Of a stretch of 64,000 nucleotides of DNA, positions 6,030-58,386 are shown piece after piece; within the stretch, counting starts at the first letter, position 1, and the number at the start of each line of letters is the position of its first letter. The position numbers and the translations under genes are program-made. This DNA is from Eledone cirrhosa (taxonomy: Eukaryota): NCBI GenBank assembly GCA_964016885.1, contig OZ024743.1, positions 147,560,001 through 147,624,000 on the forward strand. Direction: 5' to 3'. Under the pieces are notes generated by a model that was not told where the DNA came from, did not search any database, and saw nothing but the letters and a program-made list of their open reading frames with translations.

Positions 6030-6681
6030 CATACATATAGTTCGTTTTTATGTTTTGTAGAATTCCTCATGCTATGAACCTGATATTGTTTAAATTTGGG
6101 AGGGACATGCCGCCGATAGAAGCCTGCGCACCAGGTAACTAATTCATTTCTCAACATATAAATATCGTTTATATATAACAAACAAAAATAATACGGGGGA
6201 AAGCTACTTACGCTGTGGTATTTTAAGCCGTGATCTAGTCAAGTATACCTCAGTAGCTCCATGAGAACGCCACATTTATTTCAATTTACACACATATACA
6301 CATTCATATACATAGACTGGGGAAGACGGTAAATCAGAATAGTACTGGATGTAGTTTATTTGTGAATATCGGGTAGAATGCTTTGCAGAATTTATTACAG
6401 CTCTCTGCGTTCTAATTTAAAATCCATTTCGTTCTTTCCAAATCGACAAAAAAGTAGAAGTCCAGCATTCTTCTATATTGCTTTATCAATTTCATTTTCT
6501 CTCTCTCTATCCTTCGCTGGAAGAAATCGGCTCTGCTCAGACCTGAAAAGGAATGCTATATGTATGTCATGACGGTACACCAACGACTAAATTAGGAATT
6601 ACGCCTCCACCATATATATATATATATATGTATATATATGTGTACATATATATATTTAAAGGAACGATGTATTAGTTTCAT

Positions 6682-7660
6682 TATAATAAATGTTCCGTAA
6701 ATCCATACGTACATATATATATGTATCCATGTATGTATATATATACATACTATTGTCTGTACGTCTGTATACATATATGTATGTACGTATACATACTTAT
6801 ATTTCAGTAACAGCCGTACTAAGAGTGAGAAATGAAATTTCGTTTCATTTTTTCCATTTATCGTTTTCGGTGCGCCCGGCCGATTAACTCACTCGATATG
6901 CAAATTAGGCTGCTCAGCCGTTAATATGCATAAGGAAAAGTATATACTTTCACTTCACAATCATCTGGCAGGAATATATACGGTGCTGACGATAGCTAAT
7001 AAGCTTGAAACTAGTACATCGTTCCTTTGTCAGTGTTTAACAAAAGGGCAACGATAGTTGCTAAACACTGTACGGCTTAATTCGGGATGTTTGTTTACAA
7101 ACAAACCGAGCATTATAATAAATGTTCGGTAAATCCATACGTATATATATATGTGTGTACATGTATGTATATATATATATACATACTACTGTACGTCTGT
7201 ATACATATATGTATGTACGTATACATACTTATATTTAAATAACAGTCGTATTAAGAGTGAGAAATGAAATTTCGTTTCATTTTTTCCATTTATCGTTTTC
7301 TGTGCGCCCGGCCAATTAACTCACTCGATATGCAAATTAGGCTGCTCAGCCGTTAATATGCATAAGAAAAGTATATACTTTCAGACATTCAATCATCTGG
7401 CAGGAAGGTATACAGTTCCGACGATAGCTAATAAGCTTGAAACTAGTACATCGTTCCTTTGTCAGTGTTGAACAAAAGGGCAACGATGGCTGCTAAACAC
7501 TGTACGGCTTAATTCGGGATGTTTGTTTACAAACAAACCGAGCATTTTAATAAATGTTCGGTAAATCCATACGTACATGTGTATATGTGTGCATGTATGT
7601 ATATATATACATACTACTGTACGTCTGTATACATACATGAATGTACGTATACATACTTAT
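6682..7660. repeat. ~432-bp tandem repeat (about 2.3 units)
   Basis: TAATAAATGTTC.GTAAATCCATACGT recurs at ~6684, ~7116 and ~7548; unit contains ATGCAAAT. Confidence 0.9.
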
Positions 7661-7983
7661 ATATATATATATATATATATATAATGGAAAACGAAAAATC
7701 AGTGATGCGTTGGAACTCAATTTTTTGTGTGTGACAATTGTTTCCCCGGTGAACAGCTTGAGGTGCGATCTGTGTGTGGATCAACCTGACTCTAAACTCG
7801 CAGATTCCTCGGACACGTCTATTGATTTCGGAGCATTTCCTCTTTCTCACTAATATATATATGTGTGTGTGTTTGCGTGTGTGTGTATGTGTTTGAGTGT
7901 GTGTGTGTATGTGCGTGTGTTTATATCTATTTATACTCGGTATATATCTGTCTATATCTATGTATTTATCTAACTGTCAATCA

Positions 7984-10043: not shown

Positions 10044-10145
10044 TCTTCCTGCTATATCAAGTGTCAACCTAATAAAACCCTTCCATATACTGTACCGATT
10101 GTGTTGTTATTTCTGTTTACCTTTTACACACACATATATATATAT

Positions 10146-10621
10146 AAATTATAAATATAACCTATCGCCGTATTTTGACTAAAGAAATTAAAGAAATTAT
10201 TTAGCCTGATAGTGGGGTTAAGAACCCTCGGAGAAATGGAAAAAGATCAGTATTGACGTACATGGGAGCCGAACCCACATCTTTGGTTATCCAGACCACT
10301 GTGCTACCATTACACCAACACATCACCCGTTTTCTTCCATTCAAATTAGAAGCTATAATCTTAGCAACTGTAATGTCAAGTAAGAATATTTTCGAAACAT
10401 AGAGCGAGTTTGAAATTATAAATATAAGCTATCGTCGTATTTTGACTAAAGAAATTAAAGAAATTATTTAGCCTGATAGTGGGGTTAAGTTTTTCCATTT
10501 CTCCGAGGGTTCTTAACCCCACTATCAGGCTAAATAATTTCTTTAATTTCTTTAGTCAAAATACGGCGATAGCTTATATTTATAATTTCAAACTCGATCG
10601 CTGTTTCGAAAATATTCTTAC
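10146..10621. mobile_element. 267-bp-unit element: partial tandem plus inverted arm, containing a tRNA-like cloverleaf, inside (TA)n
   Basis: 10146-10222 is repeated at 10413-10489; 10490-10621 is an inverted copy of the unit; related copy at 26957-27124. Confidence 0.8.
10254..10324 (-). tRNA. tRNA-like cloverleaf (tRNA-Gln-like D arm, GGA in anticodon position); pseudo-tRNA or element-borne
   Basis: Acceptor GAUGUGU/GUACGUC, D arm GUGU/GCAC with A-box UGGUGUAAUGG, anticodon arm UGGU-CUGGAUA-ACCA, T arm GUGGG-UUCGGCU-CCCAU; T5 run ~10 nt downstream. Confidence 0.6.
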
Positions 10622-10639
10622 TATATGTATATATGTGTG

Positions 10640-10746
<107 letters not shown>

Positions 10747-11378: not shown

Positions 11379-11500
11379 GTCGTTTCTGAATTTGTTTAGC
11401 AAGATTCTTATTGGCAACATGACCCTTCCAAAGTATAACAATATATATATATGTATATATGTATATATATATATGTGTGTGTGTGTGTATATATATATAT

Positions 11501-12008
11501 GGTGGCTGCCAACTCGTTTTCGAGTACGGCCACTACTTTATATCCATGTAGGAGAACCCCTACTGATGCGCTGAACGATTGTGACTTTTTAGTCCAGCCA
11601 GCGACTTGAAAACTCTGGTACTAACACTACACTTGTGACAATTATTGACACATAGTGCTTTGCCTTTGGTACCATGTGACGACAAGTGCAGAGAGATCTC
11701 CAGATATAAAGCAATGCCTGTGCCGTGAAGCTTTTATAGTGGACAAAGGCACTGCACAAAGCCAGTCCCACTCTCTTAACCAAGATGATATTTACCAAAA
11801 AGAAGAACAAGTCAACATCATTGGATACCATCAGGGTTGCAGGTGTTATATCAGAGTTTTCCTTCTCCTAGAATTCTGCCTTGACAAAGGCTAAGGGGTC
11901 ATCTCTCCCAGTGATTTTGGATGGCCATTGACTGTTAAGAGCTCCTTTGCCCTTTGACAGGTTTTGTTTTTAGTCCTGCAGGATGTCCAAAGTCTCCCTC
12001 CTCACCAA
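11501..12008. mobile_element. ~605-bp non-coding interspersed repeat, truncated copy
   Basis: Near-identical to 12217-12722; starts GGTGGCTGCCAACTCG next to (TA)n. Confidence 0.85.
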
Positions 12009-12216: not shown

Positions 12217-12822
12217 GGTGGCTGCCAACTCGTTTTCGAGTACGGCCACTACTTTATATCCATGTAGGAGAACCCCTACCGATGCGCTGAACGAGTGTGA
12301 CTTTTTAGTCCAGCCAGCGACTTGAAAACTCTGGTACAAACACTACACTTGTGACAATTATTGACACAGTGCTTTGCCCTTGGTACCATGTGACGACAAG
12401 TGCAGAGAGATCTCCAGATACAAAGCAATGCCTGTGCCGTGAAGCTTTTATAGTGAGCAAAGGCACTGCACTAAGCCAGTCCCACTCTCTTAACCAAGAT
12501 GATATTTACCAAAAAGAAGAACAAGTCAACATCATTGGATACCATCAGGGTTGCAGGTGTTATATCAGAGTTTTCCTTCTCCTAGAATTCTGCCTTGACA
12601 AAGGCTAAGGGGTCATCTCTCCCAGTGATGTTGGATGGCCATTGACTCTTAAGAGCTCCTTTGCCCTTTGACAGGTTTTGTTTTTAGTCCTGCAGGATGT
12701 CCAAAGACACCCTCCTCACCAAGAAACCTTGGTGGGGTTGCCAGTTTAGTCGCCAACGACCCGACCATGAGACAGGTTGTACTGGGATACATGTTACCAG
12801 TAGCACCAACTGGTGACCTGAC
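12217..12822. mobile_element. ~605-bp non-coding interspersed repeat, apparently full-length (possibly a non-autonomous RTE-derived element)
   Basis: Both ends (GGTGGCTGCC... and ...GGTGACCTGAC) are shared with other copies. Opposite strand has CTAGGAGAAGGAAAACTCTGA, which I recall from RTE-type UTRs (not verified). Confidence 0.75.
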
Positions 12823-26956: not shown

Positions 26957-27124
26957 AGCTATCGCCGTATTTTGACTAAAGAAATTAAAGAAATTATTTA
27001 ACCTGATAGTAGGGTTAAGAAATGGAAAAAGATGAGTATTGACGTACATATATAGTCAAAATACGGCGATAGCTAACATTTCTAATAATTTCAAATCCAC
27101 TCGCTGTTTCGAAAATATTCTTAC
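26957..27124. mobile_element. Fold-back copy of the tRNA-like 267-bp family
   Basis: Left arm matches 10161-10263; right inverted arm ends ...GAAAATATTCTTAC like 10621; (TA)n on both sides. Confidence 0.8.
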
Positions 27125-29479: not shown

Positions 29480-30830
29480 TGTTATTCCATTCAGTTTTTC
29501 TGTTTAGCCTTGGCCTTCTAAGTTCTATTTCGCTGGCCTCTCTGATTTGCCTATCTGCTGGGACATTTCTATGTTTAGATATTATTCTAATTTCTATGTT
29601 TTCTATGTTACCGTCGTGTTGTTGTCTGGCATGTTCGTATAGTACTGAACCGTTTTTTCGTCATTTTAGTTCCCCCTAGTATTGGTCTATCCTTTCACCT
29701 ATGCTACGAGCTGTCTCGCCTATGTATGTTGTTGTCATGTTTCTGCAAGTAACCTCTGTACATCTTATGCTATAGACTACGTTTATGGTTTTACAGTTTA
29801 TCCGGGGATTTACTTTACATATACTACTTTTCCTATTAGTACAGTGGGTTTTCTTAAAAGGGTAGGTTTTGCTGATCAGCGATTTTATGGTGTTTTCTGG
29901 CTTTTCTACCACCTTAATCTTTAAATGGGTCTTTTTCAAGGCCTTTCTACACTGGTTAGCTAATTTCCCTCCAGGGGTAGCGTCCAGAAACATGACACTC
30001 TGGTATCTCTGGTGGTCGTACCATGATGTGGCTTTCCCTATCTTATGTCTAGTCCTATCTAAGCTATTCGATGATTTTCTCCTGTATAATGGGCAAATTC
30101 CTTTCATGTCCAGTTCTATGAGGGTCTTATACTTCTCCGTGGCTCCTTCGTATACTCTGATTCTGTCTCTTTGGTTGTAGCCAGAGAACTGCATGCGGTT
30201 GATGAAGTGTTGGATGTGTCTTTCCGTTTTTGTTGGGTCGCACATGCGGGACACGTTCTTCATCACTCGTACCAAGTCTGCGATCAGAATATTAAACTTA
30301 GCACTACTGGACATTGCTGAGTTTTTGAGTATCAGGTATTTGAGGCCATGGGTTTAGCATAGTGTGAGTGGAGAATTTGGGCTCTCTCGTCTATAGTATT
30401 AATCCAGAGTTCCGTGTCTAATACAGGTATTCTATTGTTAGGGTGTTTGGTAGGGTAGTCGATAGTTACAGTTATACTCTGGTGTATGGAATTAGCTATC
30501 TGCTGGATGCTTTCCATTGTGCTACGTTCTAAATCAAACTTATTAGTACTCTCTTGTGGGGATGTCCTTATTACTATATTGGTGTCGTCTACGTAACGAG
30601 AGTACATGATGAGGTCTATGGAGCTCTCATCAAGGAAATCTTGGAGTCTCCTTTCCCACCATACCATAAAAAGGTTGGCAACGTCAGCAGCTATGCTGAC
30701 GCCAATGGCCGCTCTCTCATTTTAGGAGTAGATCTCGTTGAATTTGAATATGTGGCCCTTTAAGGTAGTTTTGATACTAGCCCCTATTGCATGTGCGACC
30801 ATTTTTCTTACCTGATCATTGTTTTGGGGG
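29480..30830 (-). pseudogene. PLE reverse transcriptase + GIY-YIG endonuclease, frameshifted
   Basis: AIGVSIAADVANLFM, YSRYVDDT, IPVLD, YAKPMAS, RMQFSGY, VVYSIRC...YIGETARS, HARQQH...RQIREA...LNRKTEW (ORFs 30332-30667, 29676-30314 and manual extension). Confidence 0.9.
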
Positions 30831-35754: not shown

Positions 35755-35878
35755 TTTATTAGTTAAGCAAAACAAGACCACAAATTTCACAAGGAAGACA
35801 TTATTAAAAGATTATCAACATATTTAGTTTGATGTAAGGAATGTAGAGAATAATAATAATAATAATATCAATAATAAT

Positions 35879-36277
35879 AATTGTTTCTACTATTGGCACA
35901 ATGCCAGCAAAAACCCAGTACATTACTGGTACTTTATTTTATCGACCCCTTAAGGATGAAAGGCAAAGTCAACATCGGCGGGATTTGAACTCAGTCCGTA
36001 AAGGGACGTAACTGTGCTGCAAAGCATGGCGTCCGACCCTCTACCGATACTGCCAATTCACCGCCCATATTAATAATAATTGTTTCTACTTTAGGCACAA
36101 GGCCAGTAATTACCCAGTGCATTACTGGTACTTTATTTTATCGACCCCGTAAGGATGAAAAGCAAAGTCAACCTCGGCGGGATTTGAACTCAGATCGTAA
36201 AGGGACGTAACTATGTTGGAAAGCATGGCGTCCGACCCTCTACCGATACTGCCAATCCACCGCCAATCCACCGCCCA
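35879..36277 (-). mobile_element. Two tandem tRNA-derived SINEs
   Basis: Reverse-complement consensus at 35879-36066 and 36078-36277, each with an (AAT)n tail. Confidence 0.9.
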
Positions 36278-36730: not shown

Positions 36731-37487
36731 GTCAGGTCACCAGCTGGTGCTACTGGTAACATGTGTACCAGTACAACCTGTCTCATGGTCGGGTCGTTGG
36801 CGACTAAACTGGCAACCCCACCAAGGTTTCTTGGTGAGGAGGGTGACTTTGGACATCCTGCAGGACTAAAAACAAAACCTCTCAAAGGGCAAAGGAGCTC
36901 TTAAGAGTCAATGGCCATCCAAAATCACCGGGAGAGATGACCCTTAACCTTTGTCAAGGCAGAATTCTAGGAGAAGGAAAACTCTGATATAACACCTGCA
37001 ACCCTGATGGTATCCAATGATGTTGACTTGTTCTTCTTTTTGGTAAATATCATCTTGGTTAAGAGAGTGGGACTGGCTTTGTGCAGTGCCTTTGCTCACT
37101 ATAAAAGCTTCGCGGCACAGGCATTGCTTTATATCTGGAGATCTCTCTGCACTTGTCGTCACATGGTACCATGGGCCCAGCACTATGTGTCAATAATTGT
37201 CACAAGTGTAGTGTTTGTACCAGAGTATATATATATATATATTGGGAGAGATGACACCTTAGCCTTTGTCAAGGCAGAATTATAAGAGAAGGAAAACTCT
37301 GATATAATACCTGCAACTCTGATGGTATCCAATGATGTTGACTTGTTCTTCTTTTTGATAAATATCGTCTTGGTTAAGAGAGTGGGACTGGCTTTGTGCA
37401 GTGCCTTTGCTCACTATAAAAGCTTCACGGCACAGGCATTGCTTTATATCTGGAGATCTCTCTGCACTTGTCGTCACATGGTACCAT
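36731..37487. mobile_element. ~605-bp repeat family, opposite orientation, with internal re-duplication (36731-37226; 37243-37487)
   Basis: Reverse complement of 12330-12822. Confidence 0.88.
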
Positions 37488-49146: not shown

Positions 49147-50129
<983 letters not shown>

Positions 50130-50458: not shown

Positions 50459-50608
50459 ATATATATATATATATATATGCAAAGTTTTATTTAAATTGTT
50501 GGGTTAACAACGAGTAAATATTTATAACTGATATAAAAGCACTCAACAAGTATTCGGAGTATATTTACGATATTAAATAAATGGAAACTATATTTATAAA
50601 ACCATATT

Positions 50609-50674
50609 TATTTCATTATATATATTTCAGGGATATCATATTAAAAATATGTTATGCCTTCTTCAGACAACATA
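50609..50674 (-). ncRNA. Minimal hammerhead ribozyme in the inverted PLE copy
   Basis: Reverse complement of 54407-54472 with one stem I substitution. Confidence 0.75.
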
Positions 50675-52026
50675 CAATATAAACAGTCTTATAAATACAT
50701 AGATTCGACATACCTTTCAACTTCGACTTCTATTTGAAAAGTTGATTTGGTAGTGAAAAAATATTAGGGACAGTTATAAAAAGAAAGAAAGAAAAACGAA
50801 GAAAAAGAAGAAATGCATGCAACTAAATAGAGAGAGATAGATATAGAGAGATAGATATAGAGAACAAATTAATGTAAAGAAACAGAGAGAGATATATAGA
50901 GATAGGAAAAACACAGAAGGAGATAGATAGAGAGAGAGAGAAGAGAGGAGAGAGAGAGAGAGAAAATATAGAGAGATAGATAGAGATAGAGATAGAGAGA
51001 AAGAAACTAGGTAGTTGGGCACCAGTTGAATGACGTATCAATGATATATTTATTTATTTATTTATTTATTTAGCTCTAGTATTAATGTAGAGAGAGATAT
51101 ATGTGGTTAAGAGAGAAAACAGCCGTTACATAGTGAGAAAAGAAAAATATCCAGGCAAAAACGAGGCAGAATTAAAACACTATGTTTCATCAATGTAAAA
51201 ATATCAATTCGTATAAAACAGGCATTATAATGTAAATATCAGTATTCATGAATGAGACACGTATTAATAATGTGTGAAAAATAATGATCATATGTCTAGT
51301 TTAAAATTTCTAGGTTTATATTAGAGTTGAGATAAAATAGAAGGTTATCCCAGATTTTATACTATATACATCCATGTGAATTTACGTGATCAGCTCTGCA
51401 AATTCCTATTTCACACGAAAACATTCTCATTGTGCTATAAAAATTTAAGTATACATATATGTGTACATACACACAAATATATATAGTCTACATTAATTTT
51501 AACAATACTATTCATGTCTTTACTCTACATTATTATCGTTCAAGCATAAATAGAGAACAGATATCAATATATCAATAAAAATATCAGAAACAAAAAGTAA
51601 ATAAAAAACAAAAAAAACAAAAAAAAAAATAATTAAAAATAAAAATATTAAAAATATTAAAAATATTAAAATAAAAATAAAACATAGTATGCCCCGCAAA
51701 TCAACCACAGAGATCAACCCTTCAAAGTTAATTGACAATATACTGCCAAGTTCGTTATAAGCATCAGAATCAAAAGCAAACAAAACCAAAAATTATTTAC
51801 CAAATCCTGTCTAGCAGAAAACATTCCAAAGGTTTAGGATACCCACTTGATCTACAGATGGTCTTATATTTAATATAGAAGTTTATCTAGTGTAAAATTT
51901 ATTCGATATATTTGGAGGATCAGCTTTTAGGGTAGTTTAATTATTCATGAAGAATGTTTAAAATAAAAAGGAATCGAAAGATTTATCGGCGAGTTTCATA
52001 AATAATTATAAATCAAATTAAATATA

Positions 52027-54203
52027 CTACATTTTAAATTTATAATTATATTTAAAAGTTGAGTTCAATCTATGTCTGCAGCAACTCAATAAATTTGTCC
52101 GTAAATTAAGGGAATTTTTAGATTTTAGTATAAAGAATATCTCCTCCGCGCAGAGGTCACATGTCTCAGAGGATGAATTAAAAGGAATCCCTCTTGAGAC
52201 TATATTCCAAGCCGTTGAATATCCAACGTTATCATGCCTAAGTTGCCAGAGTAGGCCTGATAGTGATGTTGAGGATTTTTTGCTTGGATCTGTGAAAGAA
52301 TTCTTGTGGTTATTATAGCGAAGTTTAAATTCTGTCGAGGTGGAACCAACATAGTTAAAAGAATTTAAGTCCGTTTTAACATTACAGTTGTATATTATAT
52401 TTTTAACTAAGCAATTGTTATTTAACGGACATTTAGATCTATCTCTACAGTTACATTTGTTGACTTGGATATTATTTATGCTATTATCGGTATTTTGGCT
52501 AGGTTTTAAATTCCTATTATTTATTCTATTAATATTTTGTGCTAAATTTTTGGTGGATGAGTAGGTTAATTTTATAGTATGTCTATTGAAAATTGAGTGA
52601 TACCTATGTGTTCTAGGGAAGCGATTATCAAGAGCATTAAAAAATAGTTTAGCGATTGGGTTTTAATGTTTAGTGAGAAAGGGGGGGGGGGGCAAACCAT
52701 ATTATATTCCTAGTTCTATTTCTTTTTTGGCTTTTGGAATTATTGTAATGCTTTCTATTATAGTTGTTAAAGTTGTTGCCGTAATTAAAATTGTTGTTAT
52801 TTTGGTTAGTTTGTCTATTATTATCTATGTACATAATTTTATCACTATATCCTGCTCTAGCTAACGCTTCATTGTAATACTGGGCTTTTTCGTCGAAAAT
52901 CTTTTTATTAGATGAGATTCTAGAGATACGATTTTGAACAGAGTTTACTATAGTATTTTTAACAGATCTGGGGTGGTTAGAGTTAAAGCTGACATAGTTT
53001 AAGTTTTCATTCAACTTGTGAAATGGATAGTGAAGACATGTGTTGAGATTTAATGTTACATCTAGGAAATTGACTATTCTATGGTTATTCTCAATTTCTA
53101 TTTTTAGATTAAAGTAATTAAAAAATTGTGTAATTTGTTTTCTTTTCCTATTTAGTTCAGAGTTATTATTTTCAATAAGTAAAAGCATGTCATCTCTATA
53201 TAAACCTCCGGTAGCACCGGGTATTTTCCTATTCAGCGAATTGATTAAAAATAGGCCCACAAGGTCAGTTACCTGAGCTGAGTCGGATGATCCCATAGTA
53301 ATGTCGAAATTGTTATCTCTATCTGCTCTGGTCCATAGTTGGTCATTAAATTCTATCAGTGTTTTCCTAGCCGATAATATAATGTGCATTTCATTGCTAG
53401 TTAGGTCTGTATGTTTTAATGCGTAATTTAGTGCCTTATTTAGTAGATTAGGGGTAACAGATGAATAATAGTTAGCGATATCTAGTTGAATAAACTTATT
53501 ATTATTGTTATATTTAATTACCTTAAACCACTCAACAACCTCTCCAGTTCCCTTCCACAAGCTCAAGTTAGGTACACAATTCAAGTTTTTAATTTGCTGT
53601 ATCACTCTGTCTAGAATGTTTTTGCTTAGTTTACCCAGTCCGATTTTGATGGTGCAATCAATCTGACTGGCAGGTCATTTTCAAAATTATTTTGTGATCT
53701 TTCATATTGATCTTCGGTTTCCTGGGCACGAAAGGTTGTGTTCTGTTCTCAATTTCCAACTCATGCATTATACAAGATGCCTCAACATTCATTTTCTCAA
53801 GCTCGGCTTTATCTGCTACCTTGTACTTTTTCCTCAGTTCTTTCAGTATTAGGCCATTATACATGTCTTTTTGCACTCCATAGAGGTTGTTGGTCTTGTC
53901 AGATTTCACCAAGATCTTCTCAGTTTTCTCTAAGCTCTCAATATTATCCTTAATGCCTTTCAGATATTCCTGGCCTTTGAAGTTTCTCTTGAATTTGACT
54001 CCTTGTATGATAGAAATTATATCGTTTTCAAAGTCAAATAAAAGTTTGTTGGGGGGTGGATTTCTTTTGGATTTGAAAACTTTGTCTAAGTCCGAGACAT
54101 TTTCATTTATATTAGATTTATCAAAGTGGAATGCACGCCACCTGATTCTCCTTATAAAAGAGTCGGATTTATCTATTAATTGTTTAATAAAGTCTTTGTT
54201 TCT
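52027..54203 (-). pseudogene. Inverted, 5'-truncated, frameshifted copy of the PLE RT/GIY-YIG ORF
   Basis: ORFs 52670-53605 and 53658-53912 are near-identical to the 627-aa protein; indels near 53690, 53640 and 52680. Confidence 0.92.
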
Positions 54204-54602
54204 TTACATGAATTTCTTCTCTATATCTATCTCTCTATATCTATCTCTCTCTATTTAGTTGCATGCATTTCTTCTTTTTCTTCGTTTTTCTTTCTTTCTT
54301 TTTATAACTGTCCCTAATATTTTTTCACTACCAAATCAACTTTTCAAATAGAAGTCGAAGTTGAAAGGTATGTCGAATCTATGTATTTATAAGACTGTTT
54401 ATATTGTATTTTGTCTGAAGAAGGCATAACATATTTTTAATATGATATCCCTGAAATATATATAATGAAATAAATATGGTTTTATAAATATAGTTTCCAT
54501 TTATTTAATATCGTAAATATACTCCAAATACTTGTTGTGTGCTTTTATATCAGTTATAAATATTTACTCGTTGTTAACCCAACAATTTAAATAAAACTTT
54601 GC
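54197..54602 (+). repeat. PLE pseudo-LTR (3'-end copy placed upstream of the ORF)
   Basis: Direct repeat of 58017-58334 plus an ~88-bp extension, followed by a short leader and ATG at 54652. Confidence 0.88.
54407..54472 (+). ncRNA. Minimal type I hammerhead ribozyme in the pseudo-LTR
   Basis: UAUUUUGU-CUGAAGA-AGGCAUAACAUAUU(UUUU)AAUAUGAUAUCCCU-GAAA-UAUAUA-UA-AUGAAAUA. Confidence 0.8.
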
Positions 54603-54651
54603 ATATATCTTGCTCCAATACTGTTGAGCGCTTTATATTATAACTGGAAAA

Positions 54652-54885
54652 ATGGAATTCTTTAAGATTTCTTCCTCTTTAAAAGACATACCTCTACCTA
54701 GAAACAAAGACTTTATTAAACAATTAATAGATAAATCTGACTCTTTTATAAGGAGAATCAGGTGGCGTGCATTCCACTTTGATAAATCTAATATAAATGA
54801 AAATGTCTCGGACTTAGACAAAGTTTTCAAATCCAAAAGAAATCCACCCCCAACAAACTTTTATTTGACTTTGAAAACGATATAA
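54652..54885 (+). CDS. N-terminal part of the PLE ORF, separated from the main ORF by a 1-nt deletion at ~54850
   Basis: MEFFKISSSLKDIPLP...FIRRIRWRAFHF. The C run is C5 here and C6 in the inverted copy; C6 restores one ~740-aa frame. Confidence 0.75.
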   Translation: MEFFKISSSLKDIPLPRNKDFIKQLIDKSDSFIRRIRWRAFHFDKSNINENVSDLDKVFKSKRNPPPTNFYLTLKTI

Positions 54886-54989
54886 TTTCTATCATACAAG
54901 GAGTCAAATTCAAGAGAAACTTCAAAGGCCAGGAATATCTGAAAGGCATTAAGGATAATATTGAGAGCTTAGAGAAAACTGAGAAGATC

Positions 54990-56873
54990 TTGGTGAAATC
55001 TGACAAGACCAACAACCTCTATGGAGTGCAAAAAGACATGTATAATGGCCTAATACTGAAAGAACTGAGGAAAAAGTACAAGGTAGCAGATAAAGCCGAG
55101 CTTGAGAAAATGAATGTTGAGGCATCTTGTATAATGCATGAGTTGGAAATTGAGAACAGAACACAACCTTTCGTGCCCAGGAAACCGAAGATCAATATGA
55201 AAGATCACAAAAGTAATTTTGAAAATGACCTGCCAGTCAGATTGATTGCACCATCAAAATCGCACCTGGGTAAACTAAGCAAAAACATTCTAGACAGGGT
55301 GATACAGCAAATTAAAAACTTGAATTGTGTACCTAACTTGAGCTTGTGGAAGGGAACTGGAGAGGTTGTTGAGTGGTTTAAGGAAATTAAATATAACAAT
55401 AATAATAAGTTTATTCAACTAGATATCGCTAACTATTATTCATCTATTACCCCTAATCTACTAAATAAGGCACTAAATTACGCATTAAAACATACAGACC
55501 TAACTAGCAATGAAATGCACATTATATTATCGGCTAGGAAAACACTGATAGAATTTAATGACCAACTATGGACCAGAGCAGATAGAGATAACAATTTCGA
55601 CATTACTATGGGATCATCCGACTCAGCTCAGGTAACTGACCTTGTGGGCCTATTTTTAATCAATTCGCTGAATAGGAAAATACCCGGTGCTACCGGAGGT
55701 TTATATAGAGATGACATGCTTTTACTTATTGAAAATAATAACTCTGAACTAAATAGGAAAAGAAAACAAATTACACAATTTTTTAATTACTTTAATCTAA
55801 AAATAGAAATTGAGAATAACCATAGAATAGTCAATTTCCTAGATGTAACATTAAATCTCAACACATGTCTTCACTATCCATTTCACAAGTTGAATGAAAA
55901 CTTAAACTATGTCAGCTTTAACTCTAACCACCCCAGATCTGTTAAAAATACTATAGTAAACTCTGTTCAAAATCGTATCTCTAGAATCTCATCTAATAAA
56001 AAGATTTTCGACGAAAAAGCCCAGTATTACAATGAAGCGTTAGCTAGAGCAGGATATAGTGATAAAATTATGTACATAGATAATAATAGACAAACTAACC
56101 AAAATAACAACAATTTTAATTACTCCAACAACTTTAACAACTATAATAGAAAGCATTACAATAATTCCAAAAGCCAAAAAAGAAATAGAACTAGGAATAT
56201 AATATGGTTTGCCCCCCCTTTCTCACTAAACATTAAAACCCACATCGCTAAACTATTTTTTAATGCTCTTGATAATCGCTTCCCTAGAACACATAGGTAT
56301 CACTCAATTTTCAATAGACATACTATAAAATTAACCTACTCATCCACCAAAAATTTAGCACAAAATATTAATAGAATAAATAATAGGAATTTAAAACCTA
56401 GCCAAAATACCGATAATAGCATAAATAATATCCAAGTCAACAAATGTAACTGTAGAGATAGATCTAAATGTCCGTTAAATAACAATTGCTTAGTTAAAAA
56501 TATAATATACAACTGTAATGTTAAAACGGACTTAAATTCTTTTAACTATGTTGGTTCCACCTCGACAGAATTTAAACTTCGCTATAATAACCACAAGAAT
56601 TCTTTCACAGATCCAAGCAAAAAATCCTCAACATCACTATCAGGCCTACTCTGGCAACTTAGGCATGATAACGTTGGATATTCAACGGCTTGGAATATAG
56701 TCTCAAGAGGGATTCCTTTTAATTCATCCTCTGAGACATGTGACCTCTGCGCGGAGGAGATATTCTTTATACTAAAATCTAAAAATTCCCTTAATTTACG
56801 GACAAATTTATTGAGTTGCTGCAGACATAGATTGAACTCAACTTTTAAATATAATTATAAATTTAAAATGTAG
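54990..56873 (+). CDS. Penelope-like reverse transcriptase with C-terminal GIY-YIG endonuclease
   Basis: KSDKT, LDIANYYSSI, FDITMGS, GLYRDD, FLDV, SNHP, CNCR..CPL..CL, IIY...YVGST...FKLRYNNH, CDLC, LN.R.....CRH. Confidence 0.95.
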   Translation: MVKSDKTNNLYGVQKDMYNGLILKELRKKYKVADKAELEKMNVEASCIMHELEIENRTQPFVPRKPKINMKDHKSNFENDLPVRLIAPSKSHLGKLSKNILDRVIQQIKNLNCVPNLSLWKGTGEVVEWFKEIKYNNNNKFIQLDIANYYSSITPNLLNKALNYALKHTDLTSNEMHIILSARKTLIEFNDQLWTRADRDNNFDITMGSSDSAQVTDLVGLFLINSLNRKIPGATGGLYRDDMLLLIENNNSELNRKRKQITQFFNYFNLKIEIENNHRIVNFLDVTLNLNTCLHYPFHKLNENLNYVSFNSNHPRSVKNTIVNSVQNRISRISSNKKIFDEKAQYYNEALARAGYSDKIMYIDNNRQTNQNNNNFNYSNNFNNYNRKHYNNSKSQKRNRTRNIIWFAPPFSLNIKTHIAKLFFNALDNRFPRTHRYHSIFNRHTIKLTYSSTKNLAQNINRINNRNLKPSQNTDNSINNIQVNKCNCRDRSKCPLNNNCLVKNIIYNCNVKTDLNSFNYVGSTSTEFKLRYNNHKNSFTDPSKKSSTSLSGLLWQLRHDNVGYSTAWNIVSRGIPFNSSSETCDLCAEEIFFILKSKNSLNLRTNLLSCCRHRLNSTFKYNYKFKM

Positions 56874-58226
56874 TATATTTAATTTGATTTATAATTATTT
56901 ATGAAACTCGCCGATAAATCTTTCGATTCCTTTTTATTTTAAACATTCTTCATGAATAATTAAACTACCCTAAAAGCTGATCCTCCAAATATATCGAATA
57001 AATTTTACACTAGATAAACTTCTATATTAAATATAAGACCATCTGTAGATCAAGTGGGTATCCTAAACTTTTGGAATGTTTTCTGCTAGACAGGATTTGG
57101 TAAATAATTTTTGGTTTTGTTTGCTTTTGATTCTGATGCTTATAACGAACTTGGCAGTATATTGTCAATTAACTTTGAAGGGTTGATCTCTGTGGTTGAT
57201 TTGCGGGGCATACTATGTTTTATTTTTATTTTAATATTTTTAATATTTTTAATATTTTTATTTTTAATTATTTTTTTTTTTGTTTTTTTTGTTTTTTATT
57301 TACTTTTTGTTTCTGATATTTTTATTGATATATTGATATCTGTTCTCTATTTATGCTTGAACGATAATAATGTAGAGTAAAGACATGAATAGTATTGTTA
57401 AAATTAATGTAGACTATATATATTTGTGTGTATGTACACATATATGTATACTTAAATTTTTATAGCACAATGAGAATGTTTTCGTGTGAAATAGGAATTT
57501 GCAGAGCTGATCACGTAAATTCACATGGTTGTATATAGTATAAAATCTGGGATAACCTTCTATTTTATCTCAACTCTAATATAAACCTAGAAATTTTAAA
57601 CTAGGCATATGATCATTATTTTTCACACATTATTGATACGTGTCTCATTCATGAATACTGATATTTACATTATAATGCCTGTTTTATACGAATTGATATT
57701 TTTTACATTGATGAAACATAGTGTTTTAATTCTGCCTCGTTTTTGTCTGGATATTTTTCTTTTCTCTCTATGTAACGGCTGTTTTCGCTCTTAACCACTT
57801 ATATCTCTCTCTACATTAATACTAGAGCTAAATAAATAAATAAATAAATAAATATATCATTGATACGTCATTCAACTGGTGCCCAACTACCTAGTTTCTT
57901 TCTCTCTATCTCTATCTCTATCTATCTCTCTATATTTTCTCTCTCTCTCTCTCCTCTCTTCTCTCTCTCTCTATCTATCTCCTTCTGTGTTTTTCCTATC
58001 TCTATATATCTCTCTCTGTTTCTTTACATGAATTTCTTCTCTATATCTATCTCTCTATATCTATCTATCTCTATTTAGTTGCATGCATTTCTTCTTTTTC
58101 TTCGTTTTTCTTTCTTTCTTTTTATAACTGTCCCTAATATTTTTTCACTACCAAATCAACTTTTCAAATAGAATTCGAAGTTGAAAGGTATGTCGAATCT
58201 ATCTATTTATAAGACTGTTTATATTG

Positions 58227-58292
58227 TATTTTGTCTGAAGAAGGCATAACATATTTTTAATATGATATCCCTGAAATATATATAATGAAATA
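58227..58292 (+). ncRNA. Minimal hammerhead ribozyme at the PLE 3' end
   Basis: Same sequence as 54407-54472, 3820 nt downstream. Confidence 0.8.
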
Positions 58293-58332
58293 AATATGGT
58301 TTTATAAATATAGTTTCCATTTATTTAATATC

Positions 58333-58386
<54 letters not shown>

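Follow-up and report, generated by a model that had tools for sequence, protein, structure and literature searches.

A two-armed insertion in the genome of Eledone cirrhosa belongs to a large family of non-coding 267-bp repeats in which a tRNA-like cloverleaf sits within PLE-type architecture. We read this family, with a probability of about 0.55 and on the evidence of sequence, as a Pol III-promoted, PLE-mobilised element that would be copied from RNA reading through a T5 run downstream of the cloverleaf; the best reading is that of a PLE counterpart of SINEs and Helenus. Copies break off mostly at the T-loop and at the cloverleaf start, which makes it likely that the cloverleaf supplies the element with its promoter and probable that the cell handles it as a tRNA.

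In a family-model search, the window (the whole 64-kb stretch of DNA that was analysed) contained two insertions only, at 10146-10622 and 26957-27124. The first consists of a left arm and an inverted right arm whose outer ends both lie at TA repeats; the second retains cloverleaf positions 62-71 only, and its tail end matches that of the first. An earlier note on this DNA had described a 267-bp unit in partial tandem with an inverted arm inside (TA)n, and a second copy with the same end, all of which we confirmed. The sense strand is the tRNA strand (minus at the left arm), because the fixed ends are 3' ends. Cloverleaf positions are numbered linearly, with G1 at window position 10324 on the minus strand and tRNA position A58 at linear 56. 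The two insertions and their targets comprise:

10126..10145, no strand: left target, (CA)4(AT)6
10146..10489, minus: left arm, made up of one full 267-bp unit and 77 nt from the unit before it, with its 3' end at 10146 without tail and its truncated 5' end at 10489
10146..10412, minus: 267-bp monomer, subfamily A, with 90-97% identity to full-length units elsewhere in the genome
10234..10251, minus: trailer (+74..+91), which includes the T5 run; 3' strand of a predicted 18-bp stem
10240..10244, minus: T5 run, 10 nt past the cloverleaf
10254..10324, minus: tRNA-like cloverleaf of 71 nt, with a Gln-like D arm, GGA at 10290-10292 and U37
10265..10275, minus: B box / T loop; A58 in the family majority, G at 10269 in the window copy
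10307..10317, minus: motif that we take to be A box-like, of a type 2 Pol III promoter
10325..10342, minus: purine-rich leader (-17..0); 5' strand of the predicted 18-bp stem
10490..10622, plus: inverted right arm, 5'-truncated at T5, with the unit end at 10588 and a tail after it
10560..10606, plus: predicted hairpin whose loop contains the first 3' end
10589..10622, plus: PLE-type tail of 34 nt, which stops at the second 3' end
10623..10738, no strand: right target, (TA)n with (TG)n
26957..27049, minus: left arm of the second insertion, its 5' truncation falling at cloverleaf position 62, the hot spot of the family
27053..27124, plus: inverted right arm of the second insertion, with tail, in (TA)n

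The hairpin predicted across the first 3' end is present in both subfamilies, A and B, with one two-sided change between them as judged by eye, and the 344-nt left arm folds no better than shuffled sequences (z -0.38).

The cloverleaf at 10254-10324 is called tRNA-Ser(gga) on the minus strand by ARAGORN, which returned one match in 2000 shuffles of the 267-bp unit, and it scores 44.6 bits against the Rfam tRNA model RF00005 (gathering score 29). The full cloverleaf proposed earlier, with its Gln-like D arm, GGA in the anticodon position, short variable loop (4 nt) and T5 just downstream, was borne out. Compared with host Gln and Thr tRNAs only, it resembles tRNA-Gln in a nearly identical D arm, the 4-nt variable loop and 43-46 of 71 identical positions, whereas the acceptor, anticodon and T stems, the GGA anticodon and U37 are different. 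Its defects are five G-U pairs (acceptor, T and D stems), one G.A mismatch and U37, and at -13.9 kcal/mol it lies 2.4 kcal/mol above the minimum free energy fold (-16.3 kcal/mol), although two host Thr tRNAs were likewise not folded into a cloverleaf by the same program. Judged as a functional tRNA gene, the cloverleaf passes the Rfam cut-off but fails on the anticodon loop (U33, purine 37), with U37 throughout; U33 and G34 are altered in 11-12 of 86 insertions, which supports the earlier view that this is not a standard tRNA. Both U37 and the anticodon changes argue against a decoding role. The family adds false Ser(GGA) calls to tRNA gene counts.

Most family copies keep the A and B boxes and the T5 run intact, the window copy being slightly decayed by an A58-to-G change in its B box; among the first 100 genomic matches listed, T5 is kept in 88 and T4 in 11 (at least T4 in 99/100). 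Absent from the earlier note is a predicted stem in which leader and trailer pair to enclose both cloverleaf and T5. Across 71 insertions 93.7% of its cells are paired, against 53-60% in slid controls, and the most variable leader sites show nearly only A/G switches opposite U; all changes in the stem are one-sided. RNAalifold, applied to 47 of these 71 insertions, recovered the outer stem with an interior other than the cloverleaf.

Consensus sequences of subfamilies A (77 arms) and B (33), from 125 arms, show no difference over the 85 positions from G1 to T5, against 25 differences over 163 flanking positions (15%; Fisher p=2e-5). Part of this sample was retrieved with a pattern over positions 62-87; positions 1-61, which are free of that bias, are also without difference. 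If sequence was recently exchanged between the subfamilies, this identity could have arisen without selection. Across 86 insertions the shared variants lie mostly in loops or are neutral to pairing; a D-loop insertion occurs in 19, A42C restores one pair in 9 and G51A breaks one pair in 8. The covariation test that the earlier note had proposed found double changes in 0 of 21 cloverleaf pairs, a result that says little among copies about 95% identical. Strand-biased mutation is weak (G>A 0.022 versus C>T 0.016 outside CpG).

Two exact patterns matched the 3.0-Gb, (TA)n-rich host genome 3,061 and 4,003 times, with no match for the reversed controls, so the family has at least 4,003 arms; given 4% divergence, the total can fairly be put at about 10,000 arms. 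In a sample of 43 independent insertions picked by similarity, 29 are two-armed with an inverted, 5'-truncated arm, and 19 have an arm longer than 320 nt, i.e. partial tandems, with variable 5' ends. One array has at least 10 units; the units of the family abut directly, with no internal portion. Arm 3' ends fall at the unit end (31/75) or 32-41 nt further on (35/75), and of the 66 ends in these two clusters, 61 adjoin (TA)n against a background of 10%, as the earlier note had expected of the termini. Inverted arms meet at variable points, with no fixed terminal inverted repeats and no A-rich or LINE-like tail, and target duplications are unreadable inside (TA)n. Partial tandems, an inverted 5'-truncated copy, a 30-40-bp tail and a (TA)n target are among the PLE features described in PMC8557442, the (TA)n target being that of Naiads, and in the available account of PLE insertion in vitro the tail is the interval between two internal reverse transcriptase start sites and hammerhead cleavage is not needed (PMC11167929). 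Since the architecture of two arms, tandems, two 3' ends and (TA)n matches, PLE-type mobilisation, as first proposed from the window alone, appears well supported for the family.

The unit lacks a hammerhead core on its sense strand (CUGANGA..GAAA, even with one mismatch), as the earlier note had stated, and the same scan detected 3/3 PLE controls; a three-unit locus gave six Rfam matches with no ribozyme among them. A one-mismatch core on the antisense strand was rejected, its stem having only 3-4 bp.

A search for a partner by shared 3' end found none among three PLE families: the window elements at 50473-58341 and 29676-30721, and an abundant family at loci L062-L085. The first of these is a two-armed PLE whose open frame at 54801-56873 (690 aa) has reverse transcriptase and C-terminal GIY-YIG motifs, and which also carries a hammerhead core, at about 58235-58290; the second, on the minus strand, is a broken fragment of PLE-like reverse transcriptase and endonuclease. 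The L062-L085 family, presumably Penelope/Poseidon-like, carries the hammerhead core CCGAAGA, not CTGANGA, in the two copies scanned. Three PLE ORF pieces had no Pfam match, and their assignment is by motifs read by eye. In a tblastn search of the family loci, one junction chimera appeared (L002:2792-2890), in which a family fragment ending at position 56-57 is inverted and joined to a 5'-truncated reverse transcriptase of the L062-L085 family; it is a single hint of possible co-mobilisation. The absence of a shared 3' end in these three families, and the finding that only one insertion joins a fragment to a PLE reverse transcriptase, count against the PLE-mobilised reading. At 20 non-inverted 5' junctions no common donor was found, the adjoining DNA being host repeats or unique sequence. 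At two loci (L110:1326-1406 and L229) the inverted arms are separated by some 50-80 nt of DNA foreign to the family, which is GC-rich in L110.

The 5' ends of the copies concentrate at two places, the T-loop and the cloverleaf start, as seen in three samples whose ends are uncertain by a few nucleotides. Sample 1 comprises the first 100 matches listed on contig C1 to a 26-mer starting at position 62, so that ends 3' of 62 are invisible, and counts five symmetric junctions twice; 61 ends lie at 52-62, 8 at 9-51, 12 at -4..+8 and 19 further upstream, and 12 of the 31 arms that reach +8 stop at -4..+8 (8% expected, p=2e-6). Sample 2, for which the 3' hairpin served as anchor, holds 80 arms of young copies at 52 of 54 loci, with 34 ends at 55-69, 15 at -5..+10 and 4 beyond; among the 19 arms that reach +10, 15 stop at -5..+10. 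Because the B reference has a variant base, a few ends are displaced from 8-9 to 10. Positions 1-15 have 1,304 matches (reversed control 483), of which sample 3, scored by eye, takes the first 100: 14 ends fall at -7..+1, 13 of them tied to the family by context or pattern, none falls at -8..-17, one arm has a deletion and 85 arms continue upstream. Genome-wide, a pattern over positions 44-70 has 1,294 matches against 4,003 for one over 65-91, with 22 fixed bases each. The palindromes CATG, GTAC and ACGT lie beside the T-loop hot spot and symmetric junctions are often found there, but palindromes alone are no explanation of the pile-up because 21 of 38 non-inverted junctions share it. Allowing for microhomology, about five ends at 51-55 lie past a hard stop at 57 (by eye), and A58 shows no excess substitution (4/100 listed copies, versus 2 and 2 at control A's). 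A small cluster at positions 31-34, spotted post hoc, was kept out of the evidence. The observation that the right arm begins at T5 holds at 10146-10622 and fails as a feature of the family: 3/75 ends lie within 5 nt of the T5 start, one of them at this very locus, and 1/80 lies inside T5. T5 is no hot spot, and the junction there, which the earlier note had treated as a clue, is a coincidence.

The Pol III-promoted, PLE-mobilised reading would account for these patterns as follows. (i) The 5' ends of the copies suggest a Pol III start some 5-7 nt before the cloverleaf, and some transcripts, presumably made by Pol III, would run past T5 and, in tandem arrays, into the next unit; for Cassandra and Sm-alpha, too, transcription is described as passing from a repeat into its neighbour (PMC10886601, PMC6765202). 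(ii) A protein, presumably that of a PLE, would nick (TA)n and prime at one of two internal sites in and just past the 3' hairpin, giving the observed ends with or without a 32-41-nt tail. (iii) Reverse transcription would halt mostly just 3' of A58, at m1A58 or at the stacked acceptor/T helix, and otherwise at the RNA 5' end; the pile-ups are observed, and these are their putative causes. (iv) Microhomology, often that of CATG, GTAC or ACGT, would join two cDNAs, one from each end of the target, into inverted arms; the symmetric junctions at these palindromes suggest that two cDNAs may stall at the same place and then anneal. With its 5' end set by the promoter and priming at internal sites, the element would have no need of a ribozyme. 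TRMT6/61A is described as modifying GUUCRA 7-nt loops outside tRNA, as well as pre-tRNA, with m1A truncating cDNA imprecisely (10.1101/202747, 10.64898/2026.05.17.725798); a stop just 3' of A58 would fit m1A58, a structural stall being the alternative.

The main difficulty for a Pol III promoter is that T5 should stop Pol III, yet the run is kept in most listed copies; every copy with a downstream 3' end contains T5 as DNA, and the templates must therefore have read through it. As 85/100 listed arms extend upstream of positions 1-15, multimeric, circular or non-Pol III templates are needed as well. Also against this reading are the lack of any compensatory change in the cloverleaf, the preference of folding programs for other inner folds, the absence of excess substitution at A58 and the few ends at 51-55. 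The Pol III link drawn in the earlier note is upheld indirectly, by the intact boxes and T5, the conserved block and the 5' ends at the cloverleaf start.

The earlier note had further proposed that RNase P and RNase Z cut multimeric transcripts at the cloverleaf in place of a ribozyme, which we consider unlikely; on this model, monomers or circles would be supplied to a PLE reverse transcriptase. About 6 of the 14 cloverleaf-proximal ends in sample 3 would fit a cut at +1, and these ends allow for some RNase P cutting; but many ends retain 2-6 leader nucleotides that an RNase P product would lack, so the edge at about -7 is easier to reconcile with a Pol III start than with RNase P cleavage. 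Multimers or circles would yield arms of more than 320 nt and an array like the one of at least 10 units, and the absence of a hammerhead and the constancy of the whole cloverleaf between subfamilies, beyond the boxes, point the same way. However, arms beginning at the RNase Z site (position 72) number 2/80 only, an RNase Z cut would separate the 3' priming region from the cloverleaf, and the predicted leader/trailer stem would likely hinder cleavage, bacterial RNase P being described as inhibited by leader pairing (PMC9433436). Ribozyme cleavage is moreover reported as dispensable for a PLE in vitro, so nothing needs replacing (PMC11167929).

It is similarly doubtful that the cloverleaf is a mere passenger, a tRNA or SINE head carried in a PLE-derived unit under passive Pol II transcription, with truncations arising from RNA structure and junction microhomology alone. 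Read-through of T5, the upstream continuation of most cloverleaf-containing arms, the lack of covariation, a cloverleaf that is not the minimum free energy fold and the palindromes at the hot spot would all sit well with a passenger, but the contrast of 0/85 with 25/163 differences between subfamilies, the sharp 5'-end edge near -7 without obvious structural cause and the intact majority B box speak against it. It is very improbable, and largely refuted by the architecture, that the family is a SINE of the usual LINE-dependent kind or an element that spreads as DNA (MITE, Helitron-type or satellite) with a chance tRNA-like sequence: some single arms start at the cloverleaf and resemble a tRNA-headed SINE, and long arrays may expand at the DNA level, but the cloverleaf is internal to the tandem unit (85/100 listed matches), inverted arms join at variable points, and there are two fixed 3' ends with a tail of PLE type where a LINE-like tail or fixed terminal inverted repeats would be looked for.

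tRNA-derived SINEs are defined by tRNA-like A and B boxes, lack of coding capacity, a tRNA head and LINE-type ends. The Eledone family is like them in its boxes, its non-coding unit and the many copies whose 5' ends lie at the tRNA-like head, but differs in a head internal to the tandem unit, a T5 run directly after it and PLE-type ends. PLEs and their derivatives (Naiad; Chlamys-dependent MRC1) share the partial tandems, inverted copy, tail, (TA)n target (in Naiads) and lack of a canonical hammerhead, and non-coding derivatives of PLEs are known; the accessible text of that source mentions no tRNA-like or Pol III module, its sole 'tRNA' match concerning selenocysteine (PMC8557442). Animal non-LTR retrozymes, described as non-coding tandem units of 170-400 bp and thought to be PLE-dependent, have a type I hammerhead as their defining feature; the Eledone unit has none, and a cloverleaf with A and B boxes is found instead (PMC7229834; 10.64898/2026.07.22.740005). 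The Sm-alpha and Sj-alpha repeats of Schistosoma are reported as tandem SINE-like units apparently transcribed by Pol III, an upstream unit driving the next, but they carry an active hammerhead, whereas the Eledone family lacks one and bears the signature of inverted arms and a tail (PMC6765202). TRIMp3 elements (Helenus, tRNA-like; Cassandra and Ajax, 5S) likewise hold the Pol III promoter of a small-RNA gene in a terminal repeat, yet are described as LTR elements with PBS, PPT and 4-5-bp target duplications, none of which occurs here, where the ends are of PLE type (PMC10886601). The family fails membership of the retrozymes, Sm-alpha, TRIMp3, canonical SINEs and tRNA genes alike. What is known already is that non-autonomous PLE derivatives exist and that other non-autonomous retroelements carry Pol III modules; no published tRNA-bearing, hammerhead-free PLE derivative was found in a search confined to the main texts of the literature, and the accessible part of PMC13282606 gives PLE and SINE counts only.

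Taken jointly, these features tentatively suggest, at somewhat short of even odds, a third class of Pol III parasite, a PLE-dependent tRNA mimic without a ribozyme whose RNA would be handled as a pre-tRNA (m1A58) and whose leader/trailer stem would shield multimers from tRNA processing. If true, this class would follow SINEs, which depend on LINEs, and TRIMp3, which depends on LTR elements, and thousands of genomic copies would record in vivo the stalls of a PLE reverse transcriptase, the Pol III start and the annealing of cDNAs into inverted repeats. Which short RNAs are mobilised, why most carry hammerheads and how tandem and inverted insertions form are given as open questions in the PLE field, as far as the available texts go (PMC8557442, PMC11167929). 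A substrate of 267 nt that has no hammerhead, where Pol III is likely to start, priming falls at two fixed sites and truncation has a sharp hot spot, would offer a minimal test system.

Several other repeats and genes were observed. A second dispersed repeat (L088, L090-L098; e.g. G000:C5:99222941-99223013), longer than 1.7 kb, accounts for 10 of 16 Rfam tRNA hits in the genome; its start, about 315 nt upstream, has a terminal hairpin placed at TA (in inverted form in L098), and it contains an internal tRNA-like gene, mostly with a GGC anticodon, and a T4 run. It has the look of a DNA transposon. On C1, genes for tRNA-Gln and tRNA-Thr are clustered at 168.21-168.28 Mb (G000; L251-L255) and 243.65-243.68 Mb (L087, L089), and some Gln-like copies have CTA at the anticodon. 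Within the window, a 432-bp tandem repeat of 2.3 copies at 6679-7669 has relatives at other loci, and 35872-36264 is a tandem, of about 199 bp, of a common tRNA-derived SINE. A further dispersed repeat, at 11500-11890, 12217-12604, 36948-37486 (an inverted pair) and 49699-50087, is 95-97% identical between copies, has one end in (TA)n and is possibly another PLE-type end.
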